NCBI GenBank assembly: GCA_041299015.1
Contig: JBFYWB010000111.1
Coordinates: 47-64,046 of the forward strand
Length of the DNA: 64,000 bases
Reading direction: 5' to 3'
From: Deltaproteobacteria bacterium
Lineage (GTDB): Bacteria > Desulfobacterota > Desulfobacteria > Desulfobacterales > SG8-13
Below are positions 7,473 to 28,687 of this stretch, one piece after another. Every line of letters starts with the position of its first letter. The stretch's first letter is position 1. Made by a program: the position numbers and the translations under genes. Below the pieces are notes generated by a model that did no database searches, was not told the DNA's origin, and saw only the letters and a program-made list of their open reading frames with translations.

Positions 7473-8975
7473 TTATGAAAACAGCAGGTCGGCCCAGCCG
7501 ACGGCGTCTTTGCCGGTGCTTTTGATCCCGAACAAGGCCCGGTCGGCCGAGGCGAGCAGCCCGGTCGGGTCGGTGGCGTGTTCGGGGAAGGTGGCGACAC
7601 CGAAACTGGCCTGGAGCTTGACCGCTAGGTCTTGGCCGCGCAGGTATACCGAAGTGTTGATGCGGTTCTGGATGTTCACCGCCGTTTCCATCGCCTGGTC
7701 CTTGCCGAACCCCGGCAGCACCACGACGAACTCGTCACCCGCGTAGGCAACGGCATAAGCCGGCTCTTTTAGCGACCCTTGGATGGTGGCGGCTACTTCG
7801 CGGATGGCCCGGCTGCCGTTCAGGTGGCCGTGGGCATCCACCACATTCTTGAAAAAGTCGAGATCCATGAAAATGAGGGAGAGCGGCGCGCCGGTGGTTT
7901 TGCCGGTTTCGATCAATTCCGCCAACGAGCGGTAGAGGAAACGCCTGTTGTAGAGCCCGGTCAGGGTGTCGCGCATGGCCTGTGTGCGGAATTTCTGTTC
8001 GCTGGCCCGAAGGGCCTCTTCGGTTTCTTTGCGTTTGCTGATGTCCACCAGGGAAATGACGATCCGCGCATAGGTATCCTCATGGCCCGAAACGATCAGG
8101 GATTTGACCAATATACTCCTTTGGTTGCCTTTCAAGGTCAAAAAGGATTCTTCCCGCTCCTGGGAAATGTTCCCCTCGGCGATCATCAGGATGATGTCAC
8201 GCGCAAACCGGCTGACATCGGAAGGGGGGATCGGCATCAGCCCTTGTTTCAGCTCGCTGCGGTCATCGGCTTCGAACAACCGCACCACGGCATCATTGAA
8301 GTCGACCGTGCGTATCATCGCCATGCAGTGGGCCGCCGCCTGGGGGTGCTCCCTAAGATAGGCATTGAAGTCGCGTACGCCCGATTGCCGCAGTTCTTCG
8401 ATGTAGGCCTTGAGACGGGAGGCATCTCTTTCGATCAAGGCGACCGGCGTGGACCTGAACAACAGACGGTATCTTTCCTCGCTCTCCCTGATCTCGACTT
8501 CCGCCTGTTTCAAATCGCTGATGTCTTCGACGAAAGTCAGGACCTCTGTAATCGTTCCGTCGCCATCGGCTACCGGACAGAGACTGAAGCGCATGTGCAG
8601 GCAGTCGCCGCCCGCGGTGACACACGGATAGGCCTTGACCACGGGTTTTTTCTTTTCGATGCACCTCAGGAAATCTTTGGCAACGCCCTCATTTTTAAAC
8701 GCAGGGTGTTCAAAGATGTTCATGTCCGGCAGCCCTTCCGGAACCGGCCACTGGAGCATTTGCGCAAATCTGCGGTTGTGGCCAGTGATGCGTCCCGCTG
8801 TGTCGACGACGAAAATACCGAACGGCGCGCTGTCAGCCAGAAGACGATTGCGCTTTTCGATGGCCTTCAATGCCGCTTCCGCCCTCTGACGCCGCTGCTC
8901 GGATTCGCGCAGCCGACGACGCAAGTGCTGGATCTCGGATTGGGGTTGTTCGTTTGATTCTACTGCGCCGCTCAT
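7473..8975 (-). CDS. PAS-domain diguanylate cyclase (GGDEF domain with an AGDEF variant motif).
   Basis: The track ORF 7473..9515 is over-extended. The plausible start is ATG 8975 (MSGAVESNEQ..., AGGGG RBS about 10 nt upstream). It has two PAS-like regions, then RDTLTGLYNRRF...FMDLDFFKNVVDAHGHLNGSRAIREVA...AYAGDEFVVVLPG. No RxxD I-site is present 5 residues before the AGDEF motif. Confidence 0.88.
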   Translation of the reverse strand: MSGAVESNEQPQSEIQHLRRRLRESEQRRQRAEAALKAIEKRNRLLADSAPFGIFVVDTAGRITGHNRRFAQMLQWPVPEGLPDMNIFEHPAFKNEGVAKDFLRCIEKKKPVVKAYPCVTAGGDCLHMRFSLCPVADGDGTITEVLTFVEDISDLKQAEVEIRESEERYRLLFRSTPVALIERDASRLKAYIEELRQSGVRDFNAYLREHPQAAAHCMAMIRTVDFNDAVVRLFEADDRSELKQGLMPIPPSDVSRFARDIILMIAEGNISQEREESFLTLKGNQRSILVKSLIVSGHEDTYARIVISLVDISKRKETEEALRASEQKFRTQAMRDTLTGLYNRRFLYRSLAELIETGKTTGAPLSLIFMDLDFFKNVVDAHGHLNGSRAIREVAATIQGSLKEPAYAVAYAGDEFVVVLPGFGKDQAMETAVNIQNRINTSVYLRGQDLAVKLQASFGVATFPEHATDPTGLLASADRALFGIKSTGKDAVGWADLLFS

Positions 8976-9106: not shown

Positions 9107-9646
9107 TTATGCGACCGTTTTCAACGCATCGAGGATCGTTGCGACCTCCGGGTGGTCGGCCGGGTCGGCGGCGTAGTGACTGAAAACAATTTCTCCCGCG
9201 GTGGTGATGATGAACACTCCCGGCAGCTGCCGGACATCGCCTTGGGGCAATCCCATGTGATGACCGCGGGCCATGGCCGAAACCCCCTTCAGAACGACTT
9301 CGGGCGCCAGAAAGCCCCACGGAGCCATCCGTCTGAGGTCGAATTTCCGGTAGACCATCTTGGCGGGGTCGGAAACAAGCGGGAAGGGGACATCGTATTT
9401 TGCGGCAAAGGCCCTGGATTCGGCCGGGGTTCCCATCCCCACCAGGACAACCTGCGCACCGGCTTCGTCGAAATGCTGTTTTTTCCGGCGCAACTGCGCC
9501 ACCTGTTCGCGGCAAAACGGTCAGCCGAAGTGGCGCAAGAAAACCAGCACCAGCGGTCGCTCCTGCCAGAACGCGCTGAGGCGCTTCGTCGAGTTGTCCG
9601 ACAAGGTCACCGTCAGATCATATGCTTTTGGAACATTTATTTCCAT
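9107..9646 (-). CDS. Peroxiredoxin-like (AhpC/TSA, thioredoxin-fold) selenoprotein with an in-frame TGA = Sec at 9523..9521 (U-x-x-C motif).
   Basis: ATG 9646 (GGGGG RBS 5-6 nt upstream) opens MEINVPKAYDLTVTLSDNSTKRLSAFWQERPLVLVFLRHFG-TGA-PFCREQVAQLRRKKQHFDEAGAQVVLVGMG... The track lists only the part after the TGA (9107..9502). The TGA sits where RHFGCxxC-type homologues carry the redox Cys. selA is present in this window. Confidence 0.75.
9487..9500 (-). promoter_or_regulatory. Candidate SECIS hairpin for the Prx-like selenoprotein.
   Basis: The mRNA reads GGCGC-AGUU-GCGCC, a 5-bp GC stem with GU in the loop, starting 20 nt after the UGA. The hairpin is small, so this is moderate support only. 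Confidence 0.45.
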
Positions 9647-9737
9647 TATACCCCCAGACTGTTTGTGTCTTGCACCTGTTGCCGGTCGGTCGCCGGTATC
9701 CTACGATACGACTTCACGCACCTGTTTACTAAACGAT

Positions 9738-9864: not shown

Positions 9865-9965
9865 AGGAACGTTTCGCGTTACAGACATCTTTTTGCGGGC
9901 AATGCCATGGTCATCCGACACCGTCAGCGGCCGTTCCTGACGGTCAATGCGTGGAGAAGCAAAAG

Positions 9966-10796
9966 ATGAAAAGGATAGGTCCTGCTTTCTTTTTGGCGCT
10001 GGTGGCGATCGTCTTTTGCGCCTGTTCGCAACACAACCTGGGAACGTTCGTCCTCACGTCGCCGTCACCCGTCCTCGATCGCATTCAGCAGCGCGGCGAA
10101 CTGGTGGTCGCCACCGCCGCCGGTATGCCGCCGCTGAACATGACTACCAGAGACGGAAAGATCATCGGCCTGGATGCCGATCTCTCCCGCTTCCTCGCCG
10201 ACGCCATGGAGGTCAGCCTGAGACTGGAACCGATGGCCTTCAGCGACCTGCTGCCGGCGCTTGAAGCCGGTAAGGTGGACATGGTCATCTCCGGCGTGAC
10301 GATAACCGTTCGCCGCAACCGCCGCGTGGCCTTCGTCGGCCCCTATTTGATCTCCGGAAAAGGACTGCTGACCCGCGAAGCCCGCCTTGCCGCCATCAAA
10401 GGCCCGGACGGCATAAACCGTGCGGAAGTCAGGCTCACCGCCCTCAAGGGCTCCACGAGTGCGGATTTCATTAAAACGGTGGCGCCCAGGGCTCAATTCT
10501 TGCCGGTGCAAACCTATGCCGAGGCGGTCACAATGGTTATCGACGGCCGGGTGGACGCCATGGTGGCCGATCAACCCATTTGCCTTGTCAGCGCAGCCCG
10601 TCATGCGAACCAGGGGCTTATGGCCCTCGTTTCTCCCCTGACCTACGAACCGATCGGTATTGCGCTGCCGGCCAACGACCCACTCTTTGTCAACCTCGTG
10701 GATAATTTCCTGACGACGCTGCGGGACAATGGCACGCTGGAGCATTTGAAACAACAGTGGTTTCAGAAGGGCGATTGGTGGGAACAGACACAGTAG
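9966..10796 (+). CDS. Amino-acid ABC transporter substrate-binding lipoprotein (SBP family 3).
   Basis: Start ATG 9966 with a GGAGAAG RBS. The signal peptide plus lipobox reads MKRIGPAFFLALVAIVFCAC. GELVVATAAGMPPLNM, DMVISGVTIT and DAMVADQP are typical of the SBP_bac_3 family. Confidence 0.88.
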   Translation: MKRIGPAFFLALVAIVFCACSQHNLGTFVLTSPSPVLDRIQQRGELVVATAAGMPPLNMTTRDGKIIGLDADLSRFLADAMEVSLRLEPMAFSDLLPALEAGKVDMVISGVTITVRRNRRVAFVGPYLISGKGLLTREARLAAIKGPDGINRAEVRLTALKGSTSADFIKTVAPRAQFLPVQTYAEAVTMVIDGRVDAMVADQPICLVSAARHANQGLMALVSPLTYEPIGIALPANDPLFVNLVDNFLTTLRDNGTLEHLKQQWFQKGDWWEQTQ

Positions 10797-27271: not shown

Positions 27272-28687
27272 TCAGGTCAGTAGAGTTTCGAATGCGCTTC
27301 GGATGGTTTCCAAGTCGTCGTCCTGCAGGGTCCGCATGTCCATGATATACATGTCAGCCTCGATTCTGCCGATAATCGGGGGTGAATTCAGACGCAGACG
27401 TTTTTCGATCGTGTTGGCCGACAACCCGTCGATACGGACGCCCAGGCCCTTGCTGGGCAGTTCCAGCAACGGCAGCGAGCCGCCGCCGGGCCGCGAGACG
27501 ATATCCAGCAACCTGACGGTCAACCGGTTTGGCCCGGTGTTTTCCAGCAAAGTTTTCAGACATCCGGCTTTTGCTTCCAGGGTCGTGATCGGTTGCAGCA
27601 TCATGCGCAGGGTAGGAATCGCCTGCACCGCCTTGGCTTCATCCCGATACAGCCTCAGGGTGCTTTCCAGGGCCGCCAGGGTCAGCTTGTCGATCCGCAG
27701 CGCGCGCGTGATCGGGTTTTTCTTGATCCGGTCGATAACCGTCTTTTTCCCGATCATCAAACCGGCCTGGGGACCGCCGAGAAGCTTGTCGCCGCTGAAG
27801 GTGACGATGTCGGCTCCGGCCGCCGCCGATTCCTGCACCGTCGGCTCTTTGAGCAGTCCGTAACGCGAAAAGTCGATGAACGTGCCGCTGCCAAGATCCT
27901 CCATGACCGGAATCCGGTGTTTCCGGCCCAATTCGACGAGTTCCTTGAGGGAGACCTCGGCCGAAAATCCGACGACGCTGTAGTTGCTTTTATGAACTTT
28001 CAGCAGCAGGGCGGTCCGCTCGTCGATGGCGCTCTCGTAGTCCCGCAGGTGCGTGCGGTTGGTGGTTCCGACTTCGCAAAGCAAGCCCCCGCTTTTGGTC
28101 ATGACGTCCGGGATGCGGAAGGAGCCGCCGATTTCAACCAGTTCGCCCCGCGAGACGATGACCTTTTTACCGGCGGCCAGCGTCTCCAATGCGAGCAGGA
28201 CCGCCCCGGCGTTGTTGTTGACCACCATGGCCGACTCGGCGCCGCTGATTTCGCAGATGACATCCTCCACAAGGGTATAGCGGGAACCGCGACGGCCCTT
28301 GTCGAGGTCGAATTCGAGATTCGAATACCGGCGGCCGACCGTGCAAAGGTGATCGATGGCGGTTTCGGCCAGCAGCGAGCGGCCAAGATTGGTATGGATG
28401 ACGATTCCGGTGGCATTGACCGTTGTGCGCAGGTTCAGGGACAGCGATCGCCGGACCAAAGCCTTGACGTCGGTTATGACCGCCGTGTCGGCCAAAATAT
28501 CGTCGCTGCGCGCGGGGTCCTGCGCGATAATTTGCCGGCGACGGTCGCCGAGAACCGATCGAATCGAGCGGATGAGCACCGAGCGGGGGGCCCCTTCAAA
28601 AAACGGGTCGGATTTGGCGAGTTCGAGCACGCGGTCGACTCCCGGCAGATTCCGCAAGCCCTGTTTCTGATGCTGGTTGAGATTCAT
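27272..28687 (-). CDS. selA: L-seryl-tRNA(Sec) selenium transferase.
   Basis: MNLNQHQKQGLRNLPGVDRVLE..., VNATGIVIHTNLGRS, VNNNAGAVLLAL, SRGELVEIGGSFRIPDVM, KVHKSNY and FSGDKLLGGPQAG (PLP Lys). GGGAGA RBS before ATG 28687. Confidence 0.93.
   Translation of the reverse strand: MNLNQHQKQGLRNLPGVDRVLELAKSDPFFEGAPRSVLIRSIRSVLGDRRRQIIAQDPARSDDILADTAVITDVKALVRRSLSLNLRTTVNATGIVIHTNLGRSLLAETAIDHLCTVGRRYSNLEFDLDKGRRGSRYTLVEDVICEISGAESAMVVNNNAGAVLLALETLAAGKKVIVSRGELVEIGGSFRIPDVMTKSGGLLCEVGTTNRTHLRDYESAIDERTALLLKVHKSNYSVVGFSAEVSLKELVELGRKHRIPVMEDLGSGTFIDFSRYGLLKEPTVQESAAAGADIVTFSGDKLLGGPQAGLMIGKKTVIDRIKKNPITRALRIDKLTLAALESTLRLYRDEAKAVQAIPTLRMMLQPITTLEAKAGCLKTLLENTGPNRLTVRLLDIVSRPGGGSLPLLELPSKGLGVRIDGLSANTIEKRLRLNSPPIIGRIEADMYIMDMRTLQDDDLETIRSAFETLLT

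Follow-up and report, generated by a model that had tools for sequence, protein, structure and literature searches.

An unannotated UGA-containing gene of the SelL-related redox protein family in an uncultured Desulfobacterales bacterium

Relation to described Prx-like and SelL-related proteins

Eukaryotic SelL is found in fish and marine invertebrates. Its two Sec residues lie two positions apart and are both served by one SECIS element (PMC3316567), and it was termed "a Prx-like protein" in the study that found Prx-like 1-3 to be abundant in marine metagenomes (PMC2398784). The same study lists the known Sec-peroxiredoxins as TxxU proteins and the "Prx-like" selenoproteins as UxxC proteins (PMC2398784 Table 2). 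Prx-like UxxC selenoproteins of Deltaproteobacteria have been in print since the 2000s, and one catalogue places the "Prx-like thiol:disulfide oxidoreductase" (PF00578, UxxC/UxxU) in its high-confidence set of predicted selenoproteins of prokaryotes (PMC13188914). The family has an NCBI model of its own, NF040769 ("SelL-related redox protein"); it is already in the selenoproteome catalogues (PMC13188914) and is the equivalent of the catalogued Prx-like UxxC/UxxU entry (PMC13188914; PMC1976440; PMC2398784).

The gene described here lies on the minus strand of the window (the whole 64,000-nucleotide stretch analysed) and is a new, unannotated member of this known, curated family; it represents no new kind of system. 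To our knowledge, no biochemical function has been reported for any bacterial NF040769-type member. We are highly confident that 9646..9107 is one intact gene whose UGA is decoded as Sec and whose product, a cytoplasmic selenoprotein of 179 residues with a thioredoxin fold, belongs to the SelL-related/Prx-like2 family. In the Pfam and NCBIfam profile searches, which were run on the product with Cys substituted at the TGA, NF040769 was matched at 170.9 bits against a curated whole-protein cut-off of 120, over profile positions 3-172 of 173 (170/173); the score in the six-frame genome search was 161.9 bits. AhpC-TSA (72.7 bits, gathering score 26), AhpC-TSA_2 (71.7 bits) and Redoxin (57.9 bits) were matched as well. 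The equivalog models for PrxQ (27.3 bits vs 260) and thiol peroxidase (25.4 bits vs 140) scored far under their cut-offs, as did that for ResA.

The protein has the length and the thioredoxin fold of the NF040769 family, and the U/C-x-x-C/U motif that defines the family at the beta-1/alpha-1 junction is present as U42-P-F-C45. Sec usage in Deltaproteobacteria/Desulfobacterota is also common to both, and we see no essential difference between the protein and the family, to which it adds a sequence that had gone unannotated in a lineage of uncultured Desulfobacterales. With eukaryotic SelL it shares the Prx-like2 superfamily and the active-site position, but SelL carries UxxU (diselenide) whereas the motif here is UxxC (UPFC), and the SECIS of SelL is of the eukaryotic kind and lies in the 3'-UTR, whereas that of the window gene is bacterial and lies in the coding sequence directly past the UGA. 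The closest relatives are all from metagenome-assembled genomes of uncultured Desulfobacterales or "Deltaproteobacteria", and a tree of 110 sequences places the protein in an all-Sec UPFC clade of 14 sequences (SH-aLRT 95).

The UGA codon and its SECIS hairpin

The features of the locus, together with the one trans-acting part of the Sec machinery that is encoded inside the window, are as follows.

9107..9646, minus strand: complete coding sequence of the predicted selenoprotein, 179 codons including Sec42, stop TAA at 9109..9107; based on translation, the NF040769 match, collinear orthologues and a structure model of pLDDT 95
9521..9523, minus strand: UGA codon, predicted to be read as Sec (U42), which opens the U-P-F-C redox motif; column shared with 21 TGA-bearing homologues, Cys in relatives
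9512..9514, minus strand: TGC codon of Cys45, which presumably acts as the resolving Cys in UxxC; TGC in 12/12 close orthologues
9651..9655, minus strand: Shine-Dalgarno-like GGGGG, read from the sequence, with a 4-nt spacer to the ATG at 9646..9644
9486..9501, minus strand: bacterial SECIS core hairpin UGGCGC-AGUU-GCGCCG, 6-bp stem, loop AGUU at 9495..9492, 25 nt from UGA to loop
9736..9764, minus strand: sigma-70-like promoter match TTGAAA-17-TAGTAT, 9/12, about 90 nt 5' of the start; weak, a consensus match only
27287..28657, minus strand: selA (selenocysteine synthase), TIGR00474 603 bits vs cut-off 267.9

From ATG 9646 the frame runs through 41 codons (MEINVPKAYDLTVTLSDNSTKRLSAFWQERPLVLVFLRHFG) to the TGA at 9523..9521 and continues with PFCREQVAQLRRKKQ…, giving a protein with the N-terminus MEINV… and the redox region …LRHFG-U-PFC-REQ…. 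The 131-aa ORF at 9107..9502 (GTG start, table 11) is the tail of this frame, and the original description of the ATG, the GGGGG, the TGA and this ORF is exact at its coordinates. There is no frameshift and no stop besides the TGA within the 179 codons. Orthologues are collinear with the protein along its full length, and their starts are equivalent in position to ATG 9646.

A six-frame search of 61 related genomes returned 23 homologues, 21 of which have exactly one in-frame TGA, and in all 21 (29-85% identity) it stands in one common column, …[FL]RH[FLY]G-U-x-x-[CA]…; a column shared in this way across homologues makes the TGA more than a chance occurrence. Among 401 genomes of the phylum, 14 of the 15 hits above the NF040769 cut-off carry it. 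The residue opposite U42 in other homologues is Cys, never Trp or Gly. The context …FLRHFG-C-PFC-[RK]E… occurs in at least 53 Cys homologues of other phyla, Armatimonadota, Chloroflexota and Bacteroidota among them, and these are single full-length proteins; the scan pattern used to collect them favoured Cys codons, which leaves the proportion of Cys forms without meaning but the Sec/Cys correspondence direct. Four paralogues (L038, L041, L059 and L069) also have Cys at the TGA column. The family alignment contains only four invariant columns, F36, R38, U/C42 and D164, and the column that had been expected to hold Cys or Sec is one of them. Position 45 is variable, with Ala replacing Cys in one clade and Sec replacing it in L053.

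The codons upstream of the TGA had been expected to show conservation and a coding signal in relatives, and they evolve as coding sequence under purifying selection: dN/dS over the 36 aligned codons 5' of the TGA is 0.05-0.45 in 10 of 11 orthologues (L030 was excluded, being saturated at synonymous sites). On the 3' side dN/dS is 0.16-0.32, with dS up to saturation.

In this metagenome-assembled genome (3.1 Mb in 138 contigs, about 91% complete) the Sec-decoding machinery extends beyond selA (G000:C74:27333-28703 in contig coordinates, with a window offset of 46), as the original prediction demanded. It includes a tRNA-Sec with anticodon UCA (74.7 bits, also called by ARAGORN), SelB (profile match of 376.6 bits) and SelD (371.2 bits; G000:C116:16160-17086, L015), and this SelD is a selenoprotein too, its TGA falling on the canonical site (…TVKGAG-U-ASKLPPG…).

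A small hairpin, GGCGC-AGUU-GCGCC at 9500..9487, had been noted 20 nt past the TGA and is present as described; with its flanking U·G pair the stem has 6 bp (9501..9486), and the hairpin folded alone has an energy of -10.1 kcal/mol. The published bSECIS model consists of a loop of 3-9 nt with G in its first two positions followed by G/U, a stem of 4-16 bp, a distance of 16-37 nt from the UGA and an MFE of at most -7.5 kcal/mol (PMC13188914 Fig. 2). All four features of this model are found here, with a 4-nt AGUU loop having G at position 2 followed by U, a stem of 6 bp, a spacing of 25 nt and the energy given above. Codons +8 to +11 (GCG CAG TTG CGC) are without synonymous variation in 12 close orthologues, and nowhere else in the gene is codon entropy as low (permutation p=0.0004).

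In 18 sequences drawn from several clades, pairing reaches 92.9% in a 7-bp stem (columns 22-28 with 33-39, numbered from the first base of the UGA), and compensatory changes are seen at 4 of 7 stem pairs (21 cells), with stem variants such as GUGGCGC/GCGCCGC, AUCACGC/GCGUGAU, CUCUCGC/GCGGGAG and UCUCAC/GUGGGA, and the loop is AGUU throughout except for one GGUU. None of 500 shuffles reached the observed values, and sliding the partner strand by 1-3 columns lowered pairing to 18-65%. At least 6 of 7 pairs form in 25 of 26 type-1 Sec forms, as compared with 6/7 in one of 69 Cys forms and 7/7 in none of the 69. The Cys form L081 has the identical peptide (CPFCREQVAQLR), yet only 2 of its 7 positions are paired, and the RNA constraint is thereby separated from the protein constraint. 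The actinobacterial Sec form L084 (UPSCREHLGQLAG) is paired at 7/7 with an unrelated stem, CUCGGCC/GGCCGGG, and shares the AGUU loop. Folded as a single sequence, the 81-nt region gains no energy over its shuffles (z=+1.26), and support for the SECIS thus rests on the comparative data. A Rfam gathering-threshold scan of the window returned four tRNAs only and no SECIS family. The MFE fold prefers a competing hairpin, GCCGC-GAACAG-GUGGC (columns 11-15 with 22-26); it shows 0 compensatory changes in 12 sequences and is 65.6% paired over 18 sequences, which is shuffle level, and was rejected. The hairpin noted originally is the SECIS core by its fit to the published model, its frozen synonymous sites, its covariation and its absence from Cys forms. 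With its AGUU tetraloop, its fixed offset and the covariation behind it, it could allow automatic recovery of Sec members of the SelL-related family.

Three other accounts of the TGA have to be weighed against decoding as Sec. That it is a nonsense mutation inactivating a CxxC Prx-like gene, as would befit a pseudogene, could be read from the fact that table 11 yields only the 131-aa tail ORF and from the truncated public annotations of the relatives. We regard this as next to impossible, and it is refuted by the conservation of the TGA: a decaying gene does not account for one column in 21 homologues of widely differing identity, purifying selection on both sides, a covarying SECIS downstream and a frame without frameshifts or further stops. 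The TGA might instead be a true stop; the functional product would then be the 131-aa protein that starts at GTG 9502, whether or not the 41 upstream codons yield a peptide of their own. The GTG-initiated ORF does exist, and many database entries are called as a short ORF of this type. Such a product would be without strand beta-1 and the whole redox motif, including the invariant F36, R38 and U/C42, the upstream codons would have no reason to be coding-like (dN/dS down to 0.05), and GTG 9502, itself part of the conserved hairpin, is not preceded by a Shine-Dalgarno sequence. The Cys homologues, moreover, are single full-length proteins, and we consider a true stop extremely improbable.

Equally to be considered is read-through of the UGA that relies for the most part on a near-cognate tRNA for Trp, Cys or Arg, or that follows from a reassigned code (table 4 or 25). 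In its favour, some gene callers gave the relatives P0012, P0022 and P0048 a W at the site, but the W codon checked in P0012 is TGA. Genome-wide reassignment of TGA is ruled out by stop-codon usage, as more long open frames end in TGA than in either of the other stop codons (561/1054), and frames of more than 1000 codons (1045 aa) that stay open under table 11 likewise exclude a reassigned code. The homologues have Cys rather than Trp or Gly opposite U42, and SECIS and the complete Sec machinery are both present, which together make this account very improbable. Five independent lines of evidence, namely the conserved TGA, the Cys counterparts, the coding character of the upstream codons, the SECIS and the full Sec machinery, concur in supporting the original prediction of a U-x-x-C selenoprotein, and the in-frame TGA almost certainly encodes an active-site selenocysteine.

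Gene callers had been predicted to truncate the gene, and this was borne out in the databases, where 114 of the best 120 homologues are N-terminally truncated calls of 109-136 aa; the three full-length calls with W at the Sec site are the proteins named above. Throughout the clade, the entries in public protein sets are interrupted at the UGA, and the catalytic half of the protein and the selenium dependence of these Desulfobacterales are consequently invisible to standard pipelines. The main value of the present analysis is a correction of annotation, and knowledge of selenoprotein biology is unchanged by it.

Fold, proposed chemistry and gene neighbourhood

An AlphaFold model built from a 30-sequence family alignment has a thioredoxin fold (pTM 0.90, with the pLDDT given above) and places U42 between strand 32-36 and helix 43-54. 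This strand-helix junction is the classic active-site position of the thioredoxin fold. The protein has no signal peptide, as its model is folded from residue 12 on and its N-terminus is hydrophilic. The best PDB neighbour of the model is the human prostamide/prostaglandin F synthase PRXL2B (TM 0.77/0.84, rmsd 2.3 Å), followed by Bcp/PrxQ, ResA and AhpE. Sequence comparison too picks out PRXL2B (PDB 9us9/9usa) as the best PDB match, with E=3.4e-8 for 9us9 across residues 22-174, and the catalytic C44-x-x-C47 of the human enzyme lies opposite U42-x-x-C45. The two proteins are only 21% identical, however, PRXL2B has Cys rather than Sec, and a bacterium of the sulfate-reducer type is not expected to contain the PGH2 endoperoxide on which PRXL2B acts. 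The correspondence observed with PRXL2B, whose CxxC pair reduces an endoperoxide in a thioredoxin-dependent reaction, is one of fold and motif.

Canonical peroxiredoxins (PrxQ/BCP, AhpE) and ResA have the fold in common with the window protein (Foldseek E about 1e-10 to 1e-11). The PxxxTxxC of PrxQ (5enu) maps to R38-x-x-x-U42-x-x-C45, with Pro at R38, Thr at U42 and the peroxidatic Cys at C45. The canonical PxxxT/SxxC signature is replaced by a thioredoxin-type UxxC, and since the alignment to PrxQ puts Sec in the Thr column and C45 in the peroxidatic column, the protein is, on alignment grounds, not a canonical peroxiredoxin. In ResA and PRXL2B, U42 aligns with the N-terminal Cys and C45 with the second Cys of the thioredoxin-type CxxC. 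The Sec context had originally been described as that of a CxxC or a peroxidatic Cys; the CxxC part of this description holds, while the peroxidatic part does not, the peroxidatic column being that of C45. The UxxC motif is of the same type as the CxxC of ResA, but ResA is exported and membrane-anchored whereas the window protein has no signal peptide.

The following sequence of events may be proposed. SelB bound to Sec-tRNA(Sec) would be recruited by the SECIS hairpin at 9501..9486 within the coding sequence, and the Sec that it carries would be inserted at the UGA (9523..9521) instead of termination taking place. In the model, Sec42 lies at the N-terminus of helix alpha-1, directly past strand beta-1, where a thioredoxin-type CxxC has its nucleophilic Cys, with Cys45 one helical turn beyond it. 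By analogy with CxxC enzymes of the thioredoxin fold and with PRXL2B, the selenolate of Sec42 would attack an oxidised substrate, which may be a disulfide (as in ResA/TlpA) or else a peroxide or endoperoxide (as in PRXL2B), Cys45 would resolve the intermediate to give a selenenylsulfide, and a thioredoxin-type reductant would regenerate the enzyme. We infer Sec42 to be the attacking nucleophile, a role that fits the invariance of U/C42 and the existence of a UxxA clade that retains Sec alone. What the analysis establishes is the structure of the gene, the correspondence of Sec with Cys, the SECIS, the decoding machinery and the fold; selenium incorporation, the substrate and the reductant are proposed.

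The downstream neighbour on the same strand, 131 nt away at 7473..8975 (minus strand), codes for a PAS-domain GGDEF-type diguanylate cyclase, and no terminator-like site occurs between the stop of the selenoprotein gene (9107) and the start of the PAS-GGDEF gene (8975). The pairing is kept in 3 of 5 same-genus orthologous loci, the gene being lost in L021. Based on the missing terminator and the partly retained pairing, one might imagine that the selenoprotein is no housekeeping reductase but senses the redox state for the diguanylate cyclase, or relays it to that enzyme, and Se-dependent thiol/selenol chemistry would then be linked to c-di-GMP signalling; we think this very unlikely. A divergent solute-binding lipoprotein gene is located at 9951..10796. 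The gene neighbourhood gave no conserved functional partner, the solute-binding and PAS-GGDEF genes being syntenic only within the genus.

Sec, Cys and SECIS variants across the family

Five Sec/Cys switches are counted on the 110-sequence tree, whose backbone is weakly supported, and at least two of them are forced by the starred branches. Outside Desulfobacterota, a 6.5-kb locus of a Thermoleophilaceae MAG (L084, DATNBJ010000091) holds both a Sec form (UPSC) and a Cys paralogue (CPFC), and the two group with another actinobacterial Cys form (support 99), which indicates, at the level of the tree, a separate Sec/Cys switch or else a transfer.

One clade of related Desulfobacterota (L031, L032, L034, L035, L058, L061, L065 and L066) has kept Sec but has Ala in place of the resolving Cys (UxxA). 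Its SECIS, here called type 2, is (G/U)CAGC-AGGUN-GCUG(C/A) and lies about 9 nt nearer to the UGA than type 1. Type 2 forms a single derived clade (support 96) and its sister, L054, has type 1. Relocation of the element within the Sec lineage is the more economical explanation for this arrangement, and an independent origin of the two SECIS types is disfavoured by the nested position of type 2. Three members of the UxxA clade begin with a signal peptide of the lipoprotein type (L031, …LTGCS; L032, …AAGCS; L034, …ASGCS), which suggests that they are exported one-Sec enzymes. Taken together, the two SECIS architectures and the UxxA clade with lipoprotein signals could mark an undescribed class of exported one-Sec enzymes.

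Another desulfobacterotal homologue (L053, G149:C38:17397-17903), one of the TGA-bearing hits above the cut-off and the sole relative in which UxxU was seen, has two TGAs, in a U-I-P-U motif with the SelL-type diselenide arrangement, and a single type-1 SECIS hairpin, UCGCGC-AGUU-GCGCGA, downstream of both. A close homologue on a 668-bp contig (L145, ENA k141_134153; protein P0083) has TCA (Ser) instead of TGA, with its SECIS hairpin still intact at 7/7 pairs, two of them G·U; the TCA would reflect a sequencing error or else a change from Sec to Ser of very recent date. Finally, a distant AhpC/TSA-type paralogue (L039, G057:C224:6834-7268) has an in-frame TGA at the CxxC position (…YRGGW-U-PYC-N…) and a hairpin of its own, UGGAGCU-GGA-GGCUCUG, and probably belongs to a different Prx-like selenoprotein subfamily.
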